Notes: a model not told the origin generated them from the sequence alone. A DNA stretch of 62,120 nt, filler included, from Bonamia ostreae (GCA_040357525.1; 6 parts of 6 records of this genome joined end to end with filler, not necessarily neighbours in it), one strand, 5' to 3'; counted from the first letter of the whole stretch, positions 13,459 through 58,311 are shown. Translations and numbers: made by a program.

Positions 13459-13758
13459 TAATTTATTTACTTTTTAGGCAAAATAAGTTTTAACCGTTAA
13501 TCACTTAAAATCTGCTAAATTTTCAATGTTTGAGTTAAAAATGCGCGTTTTTGTTTTGCGACAAAACAACGAATGTATCGAAGCCAGCTATTTCCATTTA
13601 TATCTGGTCAAATCCATTCAAAATCAATAAGCGTTTAGGTGACTGGTAGCTTTAAAGCTAACGGACTAATCGAACGCTTTACATTTAAAATTTTAGCGAA
13701 TTGACTAAAATTTTGATTAATTGACTAGTCTCAAAAATTTTGATGCGAATAAAAAAAT

Positions 13759-17350: not shown

Positions 17351-20183
17351 ATGATTTTAAAAGATTTATGGAATGATTGTTGTTCGTGCTACAACAACAA
17401 ACAAGTGTCCAAATCAACAAAATCGAAACCAATAAAAATCGATAAAAAAGCTGAGTCAACAAAATCGAAATCAAAGATAAAAATAGAGAAAAAAGCTGAG
17501 TCAACAAAATCGAAATCAAAGATAAAAATAGAGAAAAAAGCTGAGTCAACAAAATCGAAATCAAAGATAAAAATAGAGAAAAAGGCTGAAAATGAGATGA
17601 TTCCAACTCAAGAAACAAAGAAAAGTTTGAAAATGGCAAAAGAAAGCACTCCTTCGAAAAGAAAAGTCGGTGAATTTAAAGAAGGGGTAAACTCGCCAAG
17701 TTCGTCTATCAAAACACTTTCTTCAATTTCTTCTTTCAGTTTTTTCAAAGATAGTTACGATGAAAAATTGCAGAATGGTTTAGAAAGCTGTTTAAAGGGT
17801 GATAAAATTGAAAAACTGAATAGAAATTTGCTGCCACAAAAAAGAGTTTTGTATTTGAGTAAAAAATACGATATTCTTTATTGGGGTCGTTTTAAGAGTC
17901 AAAGCAATTCGAACATTCATATCACTGAAATCAAAAGGTTTCTTATACAAATAAAAATGTTTTGTTTAGAGTCTACAGACTCTATGATACGAAATTGTTG
18001 AAGGATCGAAAAATAGAAGGAGTATTTAGTGTTGTGACTAATAAAAGAATATTATATTTTGATTGTTTGAAGCGAAGCCGAGTTTTTTTTTGTAATTTTA
18101 AGAGAAACAAATGGGTTGCTATTCTACAATGGTGTATCGATAATATCAAGACAAAAGGCGCGTTGGATTTATTACTTCTTAGAGAAGAATGGAACGTTTT
18201 TGATGAAAATAATGACGGAAAACTTGTATTTAAAGAAGTTTGACAATTTTAAAAATATTAAAGGTAAAAAAACTTTTGGAAAGTTTAAATGTAAAATTTG
18301 ACTATGACGAAATTATTGGAATGATGAAAGATATTTCGAACGGGGATTTTTTAACTTTTGAGCAATTTGTGGAGCTCAAAAAGAAATTGGTGTGTCGCTA
18401 CGAGTTTATTGATTTGTTTGAAAATTATTCAGATTCTAGTTCGAAGATGTCAATTAAAGTTTTTTAGATAAAATTATTTAAACTTGAAGAAATTTGTCAA
18501 TTTTATGAAAGAAGAACAAAAAATAAAACTTTCGGAAAAAGAAGCAATTCAGTTACTTAACAAAAGTGTGACGGCAAGAAGCATTGAAAAGGAGATTAAT
18601 TTTTATGATTTTGTAGAGTTCTTGTCGTCGAAATTTAATCACCCTGTCAATTTATCTCATCAAAAAATTTTCCAGAATATGATGCAACCTCTAACTCACT
18701 ATTGCATTGCCAGCAGTCACAATACCTATCTTCAAAATAACCAATTATTTGGTTATAGCACTGTTGATATGTACATAAAAGTTTTGAAATCTGGGTGCAG
18801 GTTTCAACAATCTGTCAAATAAAATTGCTATTAAAATTTGCAGAATCGCCAAATTTCAAATTAATTTACAATAAAATTGACGAGTTTTAATTATTACGAA
18901 AAAGATGTTTGGAATTAGATGTTTGGAACAGTATAGACGGTGAACCAGAGATATATCATGGATACACACTTACATCAAAAATATATTTTAAAGATGTCGT
19001 TGCAGCTATATCTGAACAAGGATTTGTGGACAATCCATTTCCGATAATCTTATCAATTGAAAATCACTGCACTGAAAAACAACAAAACAGAATGGCGGAT
19101 GTTCTGTTATCTGCCTTTGGTGATAAAATTTTTTCTGCTGAAGATTTTGAAAAATTGAGCGAATTTCCGTCTCCAAATTTTCTGAAAGAGAAAATTTTGA
19201 TTAAAAGCAAAATTAATGAAGACGAACACGTTTTATCAAAACAAAGTAAACTCGGAAAACTTTGTTGTTTGGTGCCTGCCCATTTTTCTGGTTATGAAGA
19301 AGAGAATTATCGATTGAACCAAGTTATATCCATGCCGTTTTCTAAATTTAAAAAGGTGAAATTCACAAAATTATTATCTAACTCAATAAATTTGTATCTA
19401 TTCTTTATTTTCACATTTTAAAGGTTTCAGAAAACAACATTGACTTAATGCGAAAACTCACAAGACGGAATTTAGTGAGAGTTTATCCAGATGGTCAAAA
19501 CATAAATTCTGGGAATTTTAATCCTGCTTTTGTTTGGGCCAACGGAGCGCAAATAGCTGCTTTAAATTACCAAACAGCGGGAAAGTTTATGGGATTGAAC
19601 CAAGGAAATTTTTTTGTCAACGGATTCTGCGGATATGTTATTAAATCTGCGATCTTATTGAACGACCAAAAACGTTTTCCAATCTGTTATTCGTCAAACT
19701 ATATTTAGCAATTAAATCGCATCCATTTGGATCAATAAACTTGAAAAATTTTTATTGAAGCAACAGAGAAAATACGGTCACTTAACATGGAAATAATAAG
19801 TGCAGCATATCTTCCGAAAATCGAAACTGAAATCGTTGATCCTTATGTTGTAGTCGAACTTTTTGGACTAAACCACGTTTAAAATCACACTAACCATTTT
19901 AAACGAACAGCAAAAGAAACTGAAAACACCAGTAGTGCAAGATAACGGATTCAACCCCGTTTGGAACACGACACACAGAATATCGCTGTGCGACAAAAAT
20001 CGGCCAGAACACATTGTTATAACAGTTTTCGACAAAGACACAATAACGCAAGACGATTTCCTTGTTTGCAACTCTATTCCCGTCTGCGAGATCAGAAACG
20101 GTTATTATTTTCTGCCTATGCAAATCAACGCGTTCCAAGATTTGGCAAAATGTGGTGTGTACATTAAATTTGAGTACTCGTGA
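17351..20183 (+). CDS. PLC: Phosphoinositide phospholipase C (PH-EF-X/Y-C2, delta-like)
   Basis: ASSHNTYL, CLELDVW, IYHGYTLT, ILSIENHC, RVYPDG..SGNFNP, AALNYQT and DNGFNPVWN. Multi-exon. Confidence 0.95.
17444..17590 (+). repeat. Coding 45-bp tandem repeat (~3.3 copies; KKAESTKSKSKIKIE)
   Basis: gctgagtcaacaaaatcg recurs at 17450, 17495 and 17540. Confidence 0.95.
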
Positions 20184-22230: not shown

Positions 22231-23105
22231 GCCTTTATAGCTATGCTTAGGATTATGATTTTATACTATAGTAGAGGTAAAATGAAATTAAACTGATATT
22301 TCTATTTGTACTTGTGTTCTTCTTTTGCACAAAAACCAGGAAATTCTTGTAATAAAAACGTCTATAATTTATTAAAAAAGCAGAGTTTATTTTATTAAAA
22401 TTTTCGTAAAAATAAAACTGAAGAAATAAACAAAATTTTTGTAAAATAAGTGAAAAGGTAATAAAAGGCACATAAATATTGTTTTTTTGTTAGAATCCAA
22501 ATGCATTAAAAACGAAAAGACGTATTAGTAGTGCTATAACATTTTTGTAAAATAATATTAAAAAAGTTTAAACAAGTTGTTTTCAATGAAAATTTTGAAA
22601 TTATAATAACAAAAAACAATATGGGATAACTACAAAAAAATTGATGAACAATTTTGTTAAAAATTTCAGTTTTTTTAGTGGTGCCAAGATGGAAACCGGT
22701 TAGGGTTAGCGAAGGGCTGACTAAAACTATCTGAACCTCAATCTTTAATATATTGAAACAAACATTCGGGGGATTGTATGCTTATACTCGAATATTTTTG
22801 TTGATCTTTTTATTTTATCTTTAATCGAAATGTAATCAGTTATTTTAGCATTCATTATACAAATTTACTTTACGTAAACTTTCTTTCAATCACTTAGTTT
22901 GATCTTTAATATCGAAACAATTGAAATTAAATTATCTATATTAACAACACGGAAATGAAGAGTAAAAAATTGAGACGTCTAAAAGAGATATGGGAAATTG
23001 GAAATGTTTAAGAAATCATAGTGACCAATTAAAAATTCTACCTGACGTACGTTATTAACAGCCATAAAGAGATTAGTAAAATTTCATATAAGGAATTATA
23101 TCTGG

Positions 23106-23447: not shown

Positions 23448-24485
23448 ATGGTCAGTGATTTTTATGAGTTTGATTTCCTGGACTTGCTAGACAACGATTT
23501 GGAAGAATATTCCGAAGACTGGATCGAAACCGAATGCGAAATAATAAACTCTTTGAGCGAACACGAACTAATATGGTTGTTCAGCGCGCTGCCTCTTAAA
23601 GAAATGTGGCTATTCAGTCATCTGTGCAAGAAAACGCTCAAATGCCAAAGCAGATTTCTGAAGAGGGTGGAAAAAGTAGACATCGCAATGCGCGGACCTC
23701 ACGTTGGCAAAATGTTGGATCTCATTTTAAATGGATGTCCCAACATTGAATCGTTGCGCGTATACAAATACTTTTATGCCGAGCGAGAACATTTCCCGAA
23801 AATTTCGGGAATCCTTGCCAACTGCTCTAATCTAAAGTCTTTCGTTGGATGGCTAACCGAGGGTGTCCTTTCGAGGTGCACAAAGAAAAAGTTGAGCCTC
23901 CGAAAAGTTTTCATCGACATGTCGGAAACGGGAAACCTGAAAACTCATCTGGAGAAGTTTGAGGAACTAGAAGAGCTTGTTCTGCGGTCGCGAGACTCGA
24001 GGGGCGTTTCCCACGCGAATATGGAGAACATTGGAGATCTGTTCAAAACAGCGCCTTCACTGACAAAACTGAGCATTCGGAGCATATACATGACTGACGA
24101 AGTCAAAAAGAAACTCACGATGAACAAGAACTTGACTCATTTCGAGATCATTGGAGGGGGCTATTGCGACGAAGATGTGGATTACCTCTCGAGGAGATTG
24201 CCCTACTTGACCCACATCGGACTCTGCGGAAACGAACTCACGAAGAAAGGGGTGAAGTCGATCAGAGACAACATTAAGCGCCTTCATTCGCTCGACATAA
24301 TGGTCGCAAGCTGCGACTCTTGCGAAGAGACGTTCAGATTCTTGTGCGAGAAAGAAAATTTCTCGGAGCTCCGCTTTCTTTACGTCCGGAAATGGCCAGT
24401 TAGCTGGACAGAGCAGTTCTTGAGAAGCAAACCGCTGTGCAAAGTAGTGGATTTTGATATGTGGCGTATCTCGTTCGAAAACTAA
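23448..24485 (+). CDS. F-box/leucine-rich repeat protein
   Basis: F-box-like LSEHELIWLFSALPLKEMWLFSHLCK followed by cysteine-containing LRRs (CPNIESL, LPYLTHIGLCGNELT). Intronless. Confidence 0.75.
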   Translation: MVSDFYEFDFLDLLDNDLEEYSEDWIETECEIINSLSEHELIWLFSALPLKEMWLFSHLCKKTLKCQSRFLKRVEKVDIAMRGPHVGKMLDLILNGCPNIESLRVYKYFYAEREHFPKISGILANCSNLKSFVGWLTEGVLSRCTKKKLSLRKVFIDMSETGNLKTHLEKFEELEELVLRSRDSRGVSHANMENIGDLFKTAPSLTKLSIRSIYMTDEVKKKLTMNKNLTHFEIIGGGYCDEDVDYLSRRLPYLTHIGLCGNELTKKGVKSIRDNIKRLHSLDIMVASCDSCEETFRFLCEKENFSELRFLYVRKWPVSWTEQFLRSKPLCKVVDFDMWRISFEN

Positions 24486-24580
24486 AAATGGCTAAACGAA
24501 AATTGATAAACTTTATATTTTTAAACATTCTGCATTGAAAATTTTATATTTTTCGCGTGTTTTCGGACTTTTATAAGCTA

Positions 24581-26332
24581 ATGCCTAAATACCAAAACCA
24601 GCAATACACAAGAAGATCGTCTCTGGCCCCGAAAGGCGGTCGGCCATCGACGATTTTTTCGCAGAGAAATGTCCAATCAGAAAAGGAGGAGAACATTCGA
24701 GTACTCGCAGAATTCCTTGTAGAACACAAGTTCCCCGACGAAGTCTCCGTGCGCACTCTGAAATCGCCTCCGACCAACTATGTTGTAAACATCTTTCTTT
24801 TCCTCTTCAACAAGTTCAACCCGAACCTCGTCGAATTTGAGCGCTTTCAAGATGACGTGAAGACGCTGCTGACACTGTACGGATTTCCCTTCAGCTTGGC
24901 GAAGAGCTATCTGCAAGCGCCCAACGCACCCAGCTCGTGGCCGTACATCCTTTCGTCCATCGTGTGGCTGGTCGAGTTGTACCAATACGGCCAAAAGCCT
25001 TCGAACAGAACCACCTCGGAGAAAGGAGCTCTAGAAGCACTGGCTCTAACTGCAGAGCAGTACAAGAGCTTTCTTTCGGGCTCGGACATGGACGAAGTGC
25101 AACAAGGAATACGCGAAAGACACGAAGAGAGGCAACAGGAGATGGCTAACGAAACCGAAGAGCAGAAGAGAGCCGTCGAAGAGTTGGAATCGGAAACTGC
25201 CCAACTTCGAAAGCGCCCAACGGCGGCACAGCGGAAAGCCGCCAAAGACAAACTCGAAAAAGACATTGAGAAGTTTGAAAAACTTCTGGACAGAAAAAAG
25301 GCCCACATCGAAGCATTGGCCGAGAAAACGCGCGAATACCAAAGCCAAGACGATGAAACGCGCAGAGAATTCGCAAAATTGTCCTCGGAAGAAAAACGCT
25401 TGCAGAAAGAAGTGCGCGGACAAGAAATAAAGCCGGAAGAAATCGACCAAATGCGCAGAGAGGGAAAAAAGTTGCAACAAGACCTAAACTCGCTCCGTTT
25501 CTTTCCTCTAAAAAACTTTTCCCAAACTCGATCTTTTTAAATTTGAAGAGAGGGCGCAAAAAGAAAAGCTGAAAAGACTTGAAAACGCGGAATCGCAAAA
25601 GGGGGTTGTGCGCAATTCGCTGGACGCTGCTGCGGATCAACTGAACGAAAGACTGAGAGCTATATCCGTTGTGCCTGCGGAGGCAAAGTTGGCGTACGAC
25701 AACAACTACGCTCTCGCGATCAATCACGACGCCGGGTTCGCCGAGGGCGAAGACATTTCTGCCAGCCTTCGCCGCGCCACCTCCGTCGACCTCAGAGGGT
25801 CGCTCAAACCACACTTGCAGCAGATCCACCGGCTGCTGGCAGAAGAAAAGATAAAGCAGGAAGCCGAAGTAGCTCAATTGGAGGCGCACTTGCAAGACCT
25901 CTCCGAACGCGAACGAAGGGCGGAGCGGGAGAAGGAAGAAGTGGCGCAGGGGCTCGTCTCGATGAAAAACATGATCGAGGCGAAGGCGCGCCAGTTTGAA
26001 GAGGAACGCGACCGAGCGAACCAGCGATTGTTCAGTAAGCAAATGGACGCGTTTAGCGCTGACAGCGGCGCAGTTGAGATCTTCGAACTTGTCGGAAAAC
26101 TAAATCAGCTCACCGACCAGTTTTCTAATTCTATCGCCTTCAACAAAAATAAAGGGAAAAGGCTTTGGAAGCAGAAGAGAAAACTCGCGAAAAGGCGAAA
26201 ACGGGCGAAGTGTTGAGAGAATTGGAAAACTTTTTCGATGAGAAGGAACGCCGAGAACTGCAATTTAGAGCGTTAGACGATTTGGCTGATCAAGTCTCGG
26301 CCAAATTTCCCGTGTTAAATAAATTCGATTGA
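24581..26332 (+). CDS. NDC80: Kinetochore protein NDC80/HEC1
   Basis: CH domain (TLKSPP..VNIFLFL..YGFPFSLAKSYL.APNAPSSWPYILSSIVWLVEL) followed by a long coiled coil. Two introns. Confidence 0.9.
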
Positions 26333-45270: not shown

Positions 45271-45287
45271 AGAATTGAAATTTGTGA

Positions 45288-45629
45288 AAAATTAAATTTG
45301 GTCGTTATTAAAACATTGAAATTTGAAAAAAAACATTATCTGAACTTTAATTTGACTAAGATTGCCCCTAAAAACTCGTATCTAAAAATCGACTAAATGT
45401 CCCCGAAAGCAAATAATTTTTACAAATCGCCAACATAAAATTGCCGCAAAACAAATAAAAATTAAATTTGGTCGTTATTAAAACATTGAAATTCTGAAAA
45501 AAAAAACATTATCTGAACTTTAATTTGACTAAGATTGCCCCTAAAAACTCGTATCTAAAAATCGACTAAATGTCCCCGAAAGCAAATAATTTTTACAAAT
45601 CGCCAACATAAAATTGCCGCAAAACAAAT
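45288..45629. repeat. Tandem duplication of ~170 bp
   Basis: aaaattaaatttggtcgttattaaaacattgaa...ccgcaaaacaaat occurs twice, differing only around one A-run. Confidence 0.9.
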
Positions 45630-51991: not shown

Positions 51992-52359
51992 NNNNNNNNN
52001 NNNNNNNNNNNNNNNNNNNNNNNNNNNNNNNNNNNTTAATTAATTAANNNNNNNNNNNNNNNNNNNNNNNNNNNNNNNNNNNNNNNNNNNNTGTTCTTTT
52101 TTGTGATTGTACCGATAAGTACAAAATCGTCCGGGAAACCGACTTTTCAAGGGATATTTAGTATTGTTACCACAATAGAGATAAAGACGAACAACAGAGT
52201 TGTTTTGCCAATAAACCATTTCATTTCTTTTTCGTGGTTCCATTTAAAGGATTTCAGATTAGAGTATTTTATAATTATAGATTTGTTGTTTATGAATATT
52301 TGATTTATAAAATAAGAAGATAACAGTTTTGGCAATGCAAAATAATCGTTTATTCGAGG

Positions 52360-52999
52360 TCAAATCTTTTCATTCCTTTTTTCGATCATCATCGATCTTT
52401 AATTGTGTCTAAAATTACAGTGGTCCATCATTGGTAATACCAACTTCCATTCTGTGGCCAAATTTTCCTTCTAATTTTTTTAAAATTGAAAACCTTTTAC
52501 CTTCTCAAAGCCATAATTCTCTTTCAAATAATCGATAAATTTTCTGTAAAAGTCTTCCGCCAAATTGCTTTTCATCGCGTCATGGAAATCAAGTCTATTG
52601 CCTTTCAGCTTCGAATACAGAGAAAATTGACTGACTTTAGCAATTTTGTTAATTTGGTCTAAAATAATTTTTCCATCAAATGATCAACAGCAAAGCAAAA
52701 GTTGTATAAAATTGAAAACCGACTAAAATTTCATAATCCATTTCTTGGAGAGATTTCATGTAGTTCTTTTCGCCATCGGGCCAAAGTCTTAAATTTAGAC
52801 ATTTCTTGGCCCTTTATACAAAAAATTATTTAAGTAACATTTTTTCGATAAAATCCTCAGTGTCGTTTTTGTGTATTCCCAACAAAACGCAGATTCCAGG
52901 TCCGATTTGACTAATTTTTTCATTTGTTTTTTGTATTCTTGATTATTTTTAAGTTTACCTGACATGCGCTTTCTTTACTCGTTGGATCATTATTTTCAT
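52360..52999 (-). CDS. DTD1: D-aminoacyl-tRNA deacylase
   Basis: MKIMIQRV..IGPGICVLLGI..LNLRLW..VSQFSL..KGNRLDFH..GKFG..NDGPL. Five introns. Confidence 0.92.
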
Positions 53000-53572
53000 C
53001 AAAATTCTATTAAAATTGGTAATGTTGAAATGTTCATTATCTTTAATTAAAAAAATTGGTTTTTTCGACGTACAATATTTTTTAGCTGGATTTATTGCAA
53101 AAAGTCTTTTAAATCGGAATCTTTAGCAACTTAAAAACTGAATTTTATAATATTAAAACAGCGCCAGAAATAAGTGAACACAAATAATTTTTATTCGTCT
53201 ATGTACTTATTGTCTTCTTTCTTAATTGTCTCCTCGCGCATAGAATGTTTGATTTTGATCTTGAATAAATCTATCATCTATAAGGCAATAAATAAAAAAT
53301 TTGATCTCGCACGGTGATCAATGCCCAATAAAATCCTCTCGAGTTAGCATTCTTGTTTTACGCTTTCGTCAATCGTAATTTCGTCTCCAAAGAGTTTTGA
53401 CGCGTAGTCCTCAAAAAGAAACTGGCTCTTATCTTTTTTCAAAAAGTTTTGGCTCAAAAAGTTTGTAAAATGATAAAAACAACATCTTTTTCTCGTAAAG
53501 AGCAGTTTTATCTTTAGCTGTTTATTTGTTTTTTCTAAAAGTGTTTTTGTCACTTTTTAATGTTTTCTCCTT

Positions 53573-53715
53573 AAAAATAGAGACTACAAGGCGAACCTTT
53601 AATAATCAAATTATTTGTCCCTTTATTTTTGATGGCATATAAGTCTTCTTTTTAGAGAAGAGACTAAAGAAAACTCACAATTAAACAGGGTTAGGGTTTA
53701 CGAAATTACGCCGAT
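53573..53715 (-). ncRNA. TERC: Candidate telomerase RNA (TTAGGG template, ~143 nt)
   Basis: Template AACCCUAACCCU (53698-53687), enclosed by helix GGCGUA/UAUGCC. Pseudoknot at 53676-53642, three-way junction at 53622-53579, T5 terminator, and upstream TATA- and USE-like boxes. Confidence 0.7.
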
Positions 53716-53729
53716 AACAATTTGAACAA

Positions 53730-53775
53730 CAAATATAAATGAACAAAATCCGTTCAAAAAAGAAATGGGATTTTA
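53730..53775 (-). promoter_or_regulatory. Putative type-3 Pol III promoter (USE-like AATCCCATT + TTTATATT)
   Basis: TCCCA-core element at ~53764-53773 and TATA-like box at ~53732-53739, ~20 nt upstream of the predicted RNA 5' end. Confidence 0.45.
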
Positions 53776-53812
53776 TTCATTACAGCAAATTTTTTTAAAT
53801 TTCCAAAATAAA

Positions 53813-54438
53813 ATGGCAGACGCAAAAATAGTTTTCCCAGGTTTACAGTAATTAAATGTTCTCAAAGGGCAGAAATTGGGAACAACAACAAATTTTGGCG
53901 CAGGAAAAAACACCGTCCAATCGCAAAAACACTACGTCGTCGCCACACATGTCGGCCAAGCGACTTTATTCAAAAACAAAAACAACAAAACATTCATAAA
54001 AGTCACAACAAAAGGTCCGTCCCCGATCATTCCCACAAAAGACGATCTTGTCATCGGCCAAATTAGGAAGATCTCGAGCACAAACGCTATTTTAGCGATT
54101 TCGATTTGCAACAACAAAAAATGCGTCAACTCTTTGTATGGAAGCATACGAATGCCAGATGTTAGAAAGAGGGATTCGGAGAATGTCAAAATCTACAAAT
54201 CGTTTCGACCTGGCGACGTCGTCAAAGCGGTAGTGGTAAATTGAATCTTACACAAAAGATGTCTAGAGGAAACCAGAAATACTTTTATCTGTCGACTGCT
54301 CGCGAGGAATTGGGTGTTTTGGTTGGGATGGACGAACAGGGCAAAGTTCTGGAAAGAATCGGCAATGAACTAGTGGATTCTGCTGGGAATGCAGTTGTGG
54401 GCAGGAAAATAGCCATTTTGCATTGTGATGATAAATAA
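53813..54438 (+). CDS. EXOSC1: Exosome complex component CSL4
   Basis: VFPGQKLG, GSIRMPDVR..IYKSFRPGDVVKAVV and YLSTAREELGV. Two introns. Confidence 0.9.
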
Positions 54439-54527
54439 CTTAATTTTGTTTGCGACCCATTTTCCGTTTAATTCATTTTTAGTAAAATTTATATTTCTCC
54501 AAATAATGTTGTAATCCGTTTAATCAC

Positions 54528-57500
54528 TCACACTTCATTTATCACCCCCGTGAGATATTTCAACATTTCATCAATAACCAGAACGGGAGCAGACAACGCA
54601 AAAACAGCCGTCCACTCCGCGAGCCCGATCGGCGCCGTCGAGAACATTGTTTGGAAAAACGGGAAGTAGAGAATCACGAGATGAAGCGCAAAGGACAACA
54701 GAACGGCCGCGACTACAAACATGTTGCGCCACGGAGGCACTGCGAAGAGACTTTTGTTCTCCGAAATCGCATTGAGCGCGTTCAGCATTTCTATTGTCAC
54801 CAGCACCGAAAGGGACATGGTCGCTGGGGCCTTCTCTGTGAAGATCTTACAGTCGAACCCCGCCCCGAACATGTCGCTGCTTCCACAGCGCTCGAAATTC
54901 CTCAATTGCTCGAAAGTTATTCGAGGGCCGCCCGCGAAGTGCAGGTGCCACCACACGAATCCGAACACCGTCGCAAACCCGATGTAACAGCCGATTATGG
55001 CATATCGCGTGAGCAGCCACACGCCGATGATGTGCTTGTCGCGGCGTCGCGGTGGATGCCGCATTTCGTCCGGGTCGACCGGATTGAAGCCGAGAGCCGT
55101 CGCGGGGAGGCCGTCGGTGACCAGGTTGACCCACAGCAGTTGGACGGGGATCAGGGCCTCCGGGAGACCGAACAAAGCGGTGAGGAAGACAGAAGCGACT
55201 TCGCCGATGTTGGAGCTGATGAGATAGCGGATGAACTGCTTCGTGTTCGCGTAGATGGCGCGGCCCTCCTCGACTGCGCGGACGATGGTGCCAAAGTTGT
55301 CGTCTTGGAGGACGATGTCCGCGGCTTCTTGCGCGACCTGCGTGCCGGAGCCCATCGCGACGCCGATGTCGGCGCTGCGCAGAGCGGAGGCGTCGTTGAC
55401 GCCGTCGCCCGTCATGGCGACGACATTCCCCTGCGCTTTCAAGAGCCGCACGAGCATTAGTTTGTGGCGCGGTTCGACGCGCGAGAAAAGCCTTAAATTT
55501 GCTGTTTTAACAAATTTGCCAATTTTAATTTGAATTTGGGCTCACGACCGCTCGTTGAAACCTGACCGCCGTCCTCCGGCGCGGTCATCCGAAGTCCCAA
55601 CTTTAGCGGAAACAACAGTTTGGAAACGACAACACCGAGATTCGAACCCGTGCACACGCGAATGTGCAACTAAGTTCGAACGACGAAAGTAAAAAGACAT
55701 TACGAATGCGCAGTTGTTAAAAATTAAGGTAAAGACGGAAAGAATGCAAAAATCAGTAAAAGTAAAAAGACACTGCTTCCTCGGCAGCGATCAGTTGGTC
55801 TTGCTCCCCCATCCGCATGAATTCTTGGCCCGTTATCGATTTTCCTTTCAACTTTTCGTCCTCTCCGAATATTCCTATTCTGCGGCAAATCGACTCGGCG
55901 GTCGCTTTGTGATCGCCCGTTATGACTTTCACCTTTATTCCGGAGCGGTAGCAGCTTCTTATCGACTCTGCGACTTCGGCTCTCGGCGGATCGAGAATCC
56001 CCGCCATTCCCGCGAAAACGAGATTGTCCTCGTGGCCGTAATAGCCGTCTTCGCTTTTCCTCGCAAATGTCTTCTTTTCGCCGAAGACCAGTTCCGCTTC
56101 GTCTTTGTCTTCCAAATTCAGTTTTTTGTATGCGAACGCCAATACTCTCAGCCCGTCGCCAGCCATTTTCACCATCTCGGCGATCAAGAATTCGCGGTTT
56201 TCTTGGTCCAGTTTTTTCGAACCCGCTTCGCCCAGATTCTCTCCGTCTCCGCAGAAAATAGAGTCGCACCTGGACAAAACGTATTCCGGGGCGCCTTTGA
56301 CATGGACAAAAGCACTTTTCCTCTCTCGCTGAAAGCTGCTCCCGTCGCCGCCATTCGCCAATACGTCGATAGTGCTCATTATTTTGCGTTCTCTGTCGAA
56401 ATCGAAAAGTCGCTTTCGGGCGCCGTCCGGCGCTCCGCCCAATTTTCGCACCATCACGCGCAGTGCGACTTCGGTCGGAACGCCGACGACCTTGTCTGAG
56501 CGCGTTCCGGGTACGTGCCCGGCCTCGTTGCAAAACTCGCTAATCTGAGCTATCCGCCGCAATGCCGGGTTTTGCAACGGCTCGTGCAAGATTTTGCCAT
56601 TTTCGTCTCTAATAGTTCCCTTAGTGCTATAATCTGTCCCCGAAAGCTTAAACCTAAATGGTGCTATTTTGGTTTCAGGCACTAAAGACGGAAGTGAATT
56701 TGCGGTGAAAAGAGAACGAACGTTCATTTTGTTCGTCGTGATCGTTCCGGTCTTGTCCGAGCAGATCACCGTTGTGCAGCCCAAAGTCTCCACAGACGGA
56801 AGAGTGCGCACAATCGCGTTTTTTCGGGCCATCCTCGTCGTCCCCAGGGCGAGGCAAGTTGTCACTACGGCGGGCAGCCCTTCCGGGATTGCCGCTACCG
56901 CGAGAGTGACGGCTATTTTGAAGTAATATACGGCGCCCCGCAGCACGCCGCCGTGCTGTGCGTCGGTGAAATGGCCAATATTGATCAGCCACACCACTAC
57001 GCAGACAAAGAGGATTATTTTTGACAACTGCTCGGCAAACTTGTCGAGTTGTTGTTGGAGCGGCGTCCTCTTCTTCTCGGCGTTGATGCGCTCGAGTTCG
57101 CCTTGGATCTTGCCCAGTTCCGTTCTGCCGCCTGTTTTCACGACGAGGGCCATGCAGCTCCCTCTCACGACCAAAGTCCCCTTTTAATATAGAGATGAAC
57201 CGAAAAAAGCATGTTGGCCATGTCTTGGATGACGATGGAGTTGTTCATCTTGAGCGCTCGCGCCTGCTTCGATTTCGCGACCGATTCGCCGGTCAACATG
57301 GACTCGTTGCACATGAAGTCGCCCTCTGAGGTGATGGCCTGGACTCTGCAATCGGCCGGGACGCGCTCGCCCGTGGTCAGTTTGATGATGTCGCCGGGCA
57401 CCAGCTCTGCGGAGTCGACACGCAGGAGGCTGCTGTTGCGCAGCACGTAGGTGCTCTTTGCTTCCAACTCTTTCAGTCGTTCGATCGCGTTGGACGCGTT

Positions 57501-57872
57501 GATTTCTTGGACGACGCCGACGACGGCGTTGGCGATCAGGATGAGCAGGATAACGGCGGGTTCTACGAAGGAGCTAAAGATGGAGTCGTTGTTTTCGAGG
57601 AATCCCAGCAGAAACGAGATCGCGGCGGAGATCAAGAGGATGATGACCAGGCGGTCTCCGAACTGTTCTGCGAACAGTTCGGAGATGGAGGTTTCTGGTT
57701 TTTATTAGAAATGCAACTTTTCGCTTTTTGGAGCACTTAAATTAGAAAAATAACCGTTTCGGCCATGTTGTTTTCTCGCCTTTAAAACGTTCGATTCCGC
57801 CAAACCGTTAGTGACGTCAGTTTTTAGTTCGACAACCAGTTGTTTTGTGTCCTTAAAACAAGCGGAATCCAT
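54528..57872 (-). CDS. ATP2A: SERCA-type P2A Ca2+-ATPase
   Basis: [43 protein letters not shown] and LWVNLVTDG. Introns include 55492-55771. Confidence 0.97.
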
Positions 57873-58311
57873 TTCTTCTAATATATAGAATGTTGTTTAT
57901 ATAATTATCTGGGCTTTAAATGTTCTAGGAATCGCCAATTCAGCGAATAGCGATTTTTTAAGTTGTGTTCGATAAATATTCGGTAAATGTCTCCTTTCGA
58001 ATGGAGTGCATTCAATCCGCAAATTATTTCATCAACTATTCTTTTTTATTATTTTTTACAAAATAAAAATTCGCAACAAAATAAAAATTTGCTGCAAAAA
58101 ATTACCATTGAAATTTAAATTATATCCGTTGAAATAATTTATGTAAGATAATAATTAAGTAACAATATATAACAATTGTTGTCCATTTTTAAAAAATTAA
58201 GTAATATAAAAATAATTTGATGTACATTTTCAATTAACATTGTTCATATATAAAAAAGCTGGAACAAAGTTGTTAAAACGACCACAATTTTCAAACTATT
58301 TATAAAATTGA

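Follow-up and report, generated by a model that had tools for sequence, protein, structure and literature searches.

A candidate Pol III-type telomerase RNA beside CSL4 in the genome of the haplosporidian Bonamia ostreae

Ciliate telomerase RNAs end in a U-run, and within them a helix closes the template and the pseudoknot, with a 3' stem element coming next. They are shorter than 200 nt and are Pol III transcripts whose type-3 promoter consists of a USE and a TATA box (PMC12133305, PMC8287931). Small telomerase RNAs made by Pol III from type-3 promoters have been described in ciliates and plants and proposed in Blastocystis (PMC8287931, PMC12133305). The search logic of Fajkus et al. 2021 looks for a USE, then a template at less than 200 nt and then a T-rich terminator, and candidates were accepted in that study only once homologues and covariation had been found in relatives (PMC8287931). 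Plasmodiophorida were the only Rhizaria tried there, and none of their 10 telomerase RNA candidates is reported as supported (PMC8287931). A 2025 review mentions Rhizaria, in the text available, merely within TSAR (PMC12133305), and no telomerase RNA from Rhizaria was found in a literature search. According to a 2026 paper (PMC13746701), rhizarian telomeres are undescribed except in Plasmodiophora brassicae (TnAGn) and Bigelowiella natans (canonical); our literature search found no paper on the telomeres or telomerase of Bonamia.

Bonamia ostreae, an oyster parasite, is a haplosporidian and belongs to Ascetosporea, Endomyxa, Rhizaria and SAR. Its published assembly comprises 12.24 Mb with 33.3% G+C and canonical introns, and telomeres go unmentioned in the available part of that report (PMC11069148). 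The window analysed here is a stretch of 62,120 nucleotides from this species, and a preliminary description had read a short spacer within it as a minimal telomerase RNA gene. All the strings of that description are present on the minus strand at 53573-53772, and a string check placed each named element, from the USE-like box to the U-tail, at its minus-strand position. The best single explanation of 53573-53715 on the minus strand is a Pol III-type telomerase RNA of B. ostreae, a reading to which we give about an even chance. The features that enter the argument at this locus are as follows.

53772-53764, minus: USE-like box AATCCCATT, with its core ATCCCATT at 53771-53764
53739-53732, minus: TATA-like box TTTATATT, with TATA beginning at 53737; the presumed 5' end, 53715, follows 22 nt on
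53573..53715, minus: candidate RNA, predicted at ~139-143 nt, the 5' end placed by the distance from TATA and the 3' end by the U5 run
53712-53707, minus: 5' strand of helix P1, GGCGUA, candidate template boundary 8 nt upstream of the template
53698-53687, minus: candidate template AACCCUAACCCU, two permuted C-strand TTAGGG repeats, an exact 12-mer
53676-53642, minus: pyrimidine/purine block GAG/UUUUCUUU/AGUCUCUU/CUC/UAAA/AAGAAGACU, a putative pseudoknot or hairpin
53676-53674 with 53657-53655 and 53665-53658 with 53650-53642, minus: stems S1 and S2 of the pseudoknot as drawn in the preliminary description
53639-53634, minus: 3' strand of P1, UAUGCC, six pairs with GGCGUA including one G-U
53622-53579, minus: predicted three-way junction, AGGGAC (53622-53617) pairing with GUCUCU (53584-53579)
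53615-53601 and 53599-53588, minus: junction hairpins AAUAAU-UUG-AUUAUU and AAGG-UUCG-CCUU
53577-53573, minus: U5 run, candidate Pol III terminator, the first T5 after the template and ~140 nt past the promoter
53813..54438, plus: CSL4/EXOSC1 (Pfam EXOSC1, E 2.2e-09)
53813-53840, 53868-54235 and 54259-54438, plus: CSL4 exons

The candidate and CSL4 are arranged head to head, and the spacer, put earlier at ~100 bp, measures about 98 bp up to the CSL4 ATG at 53813. The CSL4 introns are very short (27 nt at 53841-53867 and 23 nt at 54236-54258) and have GT..AG ends. A plus-strand PP2C gene lies upstream of CSL4, and a minus-strand gene for a SERCA-type ATPase lies downstream; the ORF of the latter (473 aa) is 100% identical to the hypothetical protein MHBO_000250 of Bonamia ostreae, the next matches reaching at most 47%. 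The RNA contig of the SERCA gene stops 1 base past the stop codon (54527-54530), and the convergent CSL4 stop is 89 nt away; this suggests very short 3' UTRs, though a single contig end is no proof of them. Coding stretches such as SERCA reach 49-51% G+C at 54001-58000 and 24001-26000, compared with 23-33% for most of the window. Repeats in the window, at 45287-45629 and 17414-17589, comprise a 173-nt unit in two copies (98% identity) and a 45-nt unit in four (94% identity). The window holds 550 N, for example at 52036-52085, and so derives from a scaffolded draft assembly with gaps; a tRNA scan of it returned no tRNA genes.

AACCCUAACCCU has one exact match in the window, and matches of any kind with at most one mismatch appeared in 6 of 100 shuffles. 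Dimers of the (CCCTAA)2 type occur twice, compared with no dimer for each of nine composition-matched control 6-mer classes; the telomeric class being the only one of these ten classes to form dimers, the template word goes beyond chance. Ten other telomere-type units gave no dimers in the window. Telomere-like 7-mers have 15 matches, 12 of them within the two 12-mers and three elsewhere. The earlier reading of two permuted TTAGGG repeats is thus borne out by a perfect 12-mer whose dimer class is enriched over matched controls. TTAGGG-type dimers appear to carry meaning in the B. ostreae genome, and a TTAGGG telomere is indirectly favoured by their distribution. A CCCTAA template is also listed for Blastocystis and Auxenochlorella (Table 1, PMC8287931).

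The surroundings of the word have the order expected of a type-3 Pol III gene. As the boxes are delimited here, 24 nt separate ATCCCATT from TTTATATT, and Pol III-type USE-TATA spacing in Arabidopsis is 23-24 bp (PMC8287931). ATCCCATT agrees at 7 of 8 positions both with GNCCCAYW, the USE consensus of the rhizarian Plasmodiophora, and with RTCCCWTA, that of Stentor (Table 1, PMC8287931), which are consensuses from other organisms; an Rfam search found in the window no snRNA genes by which the USE of the host could be defined. ATCCCAT alone is not rare, with nine occurrences in the window on both strands. The U5 run is placed as the terminator of a type-3 Pol III gene would be, the sole earlier run of at least four being T4 at 53673-53670; this internal U4 had been absent from the preliminary description and could act as an early Pol III stop. 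The layout was scanned over 118,234 anchors, i.e. each window position on both strands. CCCAYW at -82..-58 is present at 1,050 anchors (0.9%), TATA at -46..-32 at 7,544 (6.4%) and a first T5 at +92..+172 at 24,423 (20.7%), and the 15 anchors that combine all three are every one at the candidate locus. These ranges were set post hoc from the locus, so that the marginal product of ~1e-4 overstates how rare the layout is. The promoter-template-terminator order proposed earlier is accordingly unique in the window, with a USE-like box close to that of Plasmodiophora.

Folding favours the minus strand at every level examined, as had been proposed, the core, the hairpin of the pyrimidine/purine block, the junction domain and the whole RNA all having the lower z on that strand. 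The whole RNA (53573-53716, 144 nt) folds at -25.3 kcal/mol with z -1.70, and 10 of 200 shuffles are equally stable, so this fold alone is not beyond chance; the plus strand gives -19.9 kcal/mol and z +0.30. The core enclosed by P1 (53634-53712, minus) reaches -15.4 kcal/mol and z -2.97 with none of 200 shuffles as stable, compared with z -0.74 on the plus strand. In this single sequence the MFE of the isolated core retains five of the six P1 pairs. P1 begins just 3 nt from the presumed 5' end, after the presumed start AUC at 53715-53713 (minus), and a slight shift of the start site would delete it.

The pyrimidine/purine block had been described as an H-type pseudoknot, and its stems can indeed be drawn as written, with S1 at -0.3 and S2 at -4.6 kcal/mol. 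The same bases form a rival hairpin of 15 bp with a 2-nt bulge (41 nt), which outcompetes the pseudoknot at -11.6 kcal/mol (z -2.81, 4 of 200 shuffles; plus strand z -0.55). In a putative triple-helix register, the U-rich loop UUUUCUUU would run alongside the purine strand AAGAAGA in parallel orientation, its U and C facing A-U and G-C pairs. The pseudoknot, named earlier as the weakest element, is the least supported part here too. On the minus strand an A-rich linker leads from UAUGCC to the junction. The MFE of the 46-nt 3' domain is exactly the three-way junction as drawn, at -8.0 kcal/mol; alone it is not beyond chance (z -1.25, 18 of 200 shuffles; plus strand z -0.04). Forcing both P1 and the junction stem to form costs 0.5 kcal/mol over the MFE.

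Under the telomerase RNA reading, Pol III would start ~22-25 nt downstream of the TATA-like box, guided by the USE-like box 24 nt further upstream, and would stop in the U5 run to yield an RNA of ~140 nt. P1 would close the core around a single-stranded template and, from its position 8 nt upstream, would set the template boundary. TERT would copy AACCCUAACCCU into TTAGGG repeats. The pyrimidine/purine block would fold into the pseudoknot bound by TERT, or into the alternative hairpin instead, and the 3' three-way junction may act as stem IV or CR4/5. The sequence elements, how rare they are in the window, the minus-strand fold of the core and the occurrence of the stretch in spliced RNA contigs are observed; for the rest of this scheme, namely RNA strand, RNA ends, polymerase, pseudoknot, telomere repeat and link to TERT, we rely on inference.

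The second telomeric dimer in the window gives a comparison from within the same genome. Its location, called locus B here (the candidate being locus A), is as follows.

22698..22744, minus: locus B, with the perfect dimer CTAACCCTAACC at 22709-22698 and an upstream module at 22742-22708

Locus B lies in a spacer between a minus-strand gene for glutathione peroxidase and an unnamed ORF on the plus strand. Its upstream module equals the candidate at 20 of 35 positions, ungapped and anchored on the shared AACCCTAACC. Among 81,096 window 35-mers of similar G+C, the A-B score was reached by 55 with A as the query and by 5 with B, which corresponds to null p values of 7e-4 and 6e-5 for the anchored similarity. 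The homology is significant only in this test anchored on the motif; when the candidate was compared with the window by low-stringency blastn, the match between A and B (68% over 44 nt, E 0.27) was lost among AT-rich matches. No similarity between A and B was found beyond the shared module, either further upstream or downstream of the motif. The 10 bases of AACCCTAACC are identical in A and B and the flanks are 57% identical, which argues for selection on the telomeric word itself.

At locus B a TATA-like word is found at -43 and the first T5 begins 46 nt past the motif start; a CCCAYW box and a telomerase-RNA-like 3' domain are both absent there, and its fold, with z -0.56, has no significant structure. 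To judge from the alignment, locus B is probably an old partial paralogue in which a perfect telomeric word has been retained; it may represent a truncated paralogue, some small RNA or an element of the DNA. That the word is preserved speaks against a chance origin and in favour of selection acting on it. A word and a neighbour that persist at B without a telomerase-RNA-like body also keep alive the reading as a DNA element, and the module may serve otherwise.

Sequencing cover bears on how the spacer is transcribed. The run X4 is labelled 'RNA?' and was taken as RNA since its contigs, 99% like the window, do without the 27-nt CSL4 intron; that missing intron, and loose ends at 54235 that continue into exon 3 and so back the 23-nt intron, indicate that these contigs derive from spliced RNA. 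A contig of 582 letters spans 53575-54174 and thus covers the candidate, the spacer and CSL4 exons 1 and 2, with the 27-nt intron removed. One strand or both of the candidate stretch must therefore be transcribed; the contig is unstranded and gives no ends. Its left end at 53575, inside the U-run and with nine unmatched start letters, was considered as an RNA end and rejected, being the contig end of a single run. The gap in X4 cover at 52900-53503 was likewise rejected as a boundary, given that CSL4 exon 3 (54259-54409), which is expressed, is equally uncovered, so that holes are uninformative. In the runs X2 and X3, the contig at 53489-54709 (X2) has 10 differing letters and one gap, all at or beyond 54175, and the contig at 53562-54384 (X3) has none; the candidate is invariant across both, and the 5' half of CSL4 is so too, for which reason no inference on constraint is drawn. 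A repeat family was considered for the raised X2 and X3 DNA depth at 53655-53956 and set aside, the depth being consistent with one foreign contig of high depth; by arithmetic from the depth tables the stretch shared with this contig comprises ~28 AT-rich letters and extends to 53814.

Taken alone, the X4 contig is most simply read as a 238-nt leader of CSL4, and this leads to the rival that survives best, although we consider it unlikely. It takes the stretch as the 5' leader or promoter of CSL4, the double TTAGGG as a site bound, in the DNA, by a Myb-type factor that recognises telomere repeats, and locus B as a second copy of the cis-module. In plants and fungi, telo-box and Tbf1/TRF-type sites occur upstream of genes for translation and RNA processing; they are usually ~8-9 nt long and recur across many promoters. 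Here the ATG of an exosome-subunit gene follows the motif at a distance of 115 nt, a single spliced contig connects 53575 with the CSL4 exons, and read on the plus strand the TATA box is ATATAAA, a canonical TATAAA that reads at least as well as on the minus strand. The plus-strand reading of the USE-like box, ATGGGAT, contains an ATG in frame with CSL4. Locus B fits as well: in a different intergenic region it has the motif next to a conserved stretch of 35 nt, and no RNA-like 3' part. A single contig across two genes does not prove one transcript. Against this rival, the leader would hold three upstream ATGs (53632, 53739 and 53765) and would be without a stable fold on the plus strand, the stable fold being found on the minus strand only. 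The minus-strand order of USE, TATA and T5 would have to be coincidence. Only 3 of the 15 telomere-like 7-mers stand outside the two 12-mers, so the word is not spread across the other promoters of the window as such sites would be, and factors of this type are not known for B. ostreae. The telomerase RNA reading for its part needs a second, overlapping transcript crossing the presumed 5' end at 53715.

A minus-strand non-coding RNA without a telomerase role appears improbable. It would be a divergent transcript of the CSL4 promoter or a member of a small-RNA family shared with locus B, its telomere-like word inherited with the duplicated module. The RNA cover and the minus-strand-specific structure suit such an RNA equally, the A-B homology is restricted to the promoter-proximal and 5' part, and AAUAAA-like words ~35-50 nt before the presumed end would allow a polyadenylated Pol II product. 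It accounts poorly for the identity of AACCCTAACC in A and B over 57% identical flanks, which points to a selected word, and for the order of closing helix, template, pyrimidine/purine block and 3' junction, which is that of telomerase RNAs; no Rfam family matches it either. Chance, whereby a telomere-like 12-mer arose in an AT-rich spacer and helices were read into it, is very improbable, since six-pair helices, A-U hairpins, TATA words and T5 runs are indeed common at ~29% G+C and the z of the whole RNA is modest, but two perfect dimers in 62 kb with none for nine control classes, the anchored A-B similarity, the z of the core and a joint layout found at the candidate locus only all stand against it.

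Comparison with known families leaves the candidate without a named home. At the gathering score, Rfam release 15 has no matches in the whole window, so the candidate falls outside the telomerase families as modelled there, and neither a telomerase RNA nor an snRNA is among the five local matches at E<=10 or the four window-wide matches at E<=0.5. Models of heterotrich and of other ciliate telomerase RNAs fail to find each other (PMC8287931). As telomerase RNAs diverge fast, the Rfam miss weakens membership of a named family and not the functional reading. Elsewhere in the window, 13569-13686 (+) has a weak match to the H/ACA snoRNA TtnuHACA9 (41 bits, the gathering score being 100; E 0.0031). 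Protein searches of large collections found no close relatives of B. ostreae beyond its own record. When metagenomes were scanned for the template together with two words of the pseudoknot, eight loci were returned, with seven distinct sequences (L003 equals L005, and L001 and L006 are near-identical), none of which resembles the candidate around the match. The contig L001 (229-360) and L006 have a strong inverted repeat directly upstream of CCTAAACCCTAACCCTAAAT, which looks like the template boundary hairpin and telomerase RNA template of another organism.

The balance between these readings can be stated briefly. The telomerase RNA reading is favoured by the SAR host, the template dimer, the joint layout, the minus-strand fold, the RNA cover and the three ATGs that a CSL4 leader would carry. 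It is weakened by RNA evidence from just one unstranded contig, which runs on into the CSL4 mRNA and is explained by one transcript with a 238-nt leader, by the Rfam miss, by a pseudoknot less stable than its hairpin, by the internal U4, by the nearness of P1 to the 5' end, by the in-frame ATG on the other strand of the USE-like box and by locus B. The interpretation given in the preliminary description is thus supported in part, by the layout, the minus-strand fold, the RNA cover and the SAR host of the locus, and is qualified where the contig runs into CSL4, in the pseudoknot and by the second dimer. A more specific version is put forward only tentatively: the candidate would be a haplosporidian and the first rhizarian telomerase RNA, ~140 nt long, with Pol III biogenesis of the ciliate/plant type and a CR4/5-like junction, and locus B would be a truncated paralogue in which the promoter-proximal module and, under selection, a perfect template persist, perhaps as a second small RNA with a template or a decoy.

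If the telomerase RNA reading is correct, this would be the first telomerase RNA for Rhizaria and would fill that gap, and the telomeres of haplosporidians would be predicted to be TTAGGG. It would also provide a test of whether Diaphoretickes ancestrally had telomerase RNAs of the Pol III type-3 kind, and a very small natural telomerase RNA, at or below the smallest ciliate size, for structural work.

Set beside known systems, the candidate shares something with each. Telo-box sites are approached in that a telomere word lies upstream of an RNA-processing gene; unlike them, it consists here of two exact 12-mers with almost no shorter copies elsewhere in the window. In the manner of vertebrate and fungal CR4/5, a three-helix junction (here a predicted fold with z -1.25) follows the core on its 3' side via a single-stranded linker, but neither an H/ACA nor an Sm-type domain is present at the 3' end. 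Likeness to the ciliate telomerase RNAs (RF00025, Telomerase-cil) extends to a predicted small size, a type-3-like promoter, a candidate U-run end, a predicted closing helix and a predicted 3' element. The candidate differs from RF00025 in giving no match to it even at E<=10, in its rhizarian host and in a template of the TTAGGG type. It also has neither the stem II nor the conserved GUCA-type boundary motif of ciliates upstream of the template, and its predicted 3' domain is a three-way junction instead of the single long stem IV of ciliates. It is known from a single sequence, unlike the candidates accepted in PMC8287931, which are backed by relatives. With the telomerase RNAs of plants and green algae and the candidates in Heterotrichea and Blastocystis it has in common the order of USE-like box, template and T-run, a predicted helix that delimits the core, a putative pseudoknot and a candidate boundary element. 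Plant telomerase RNAs are longer than the Bonamia candidate.
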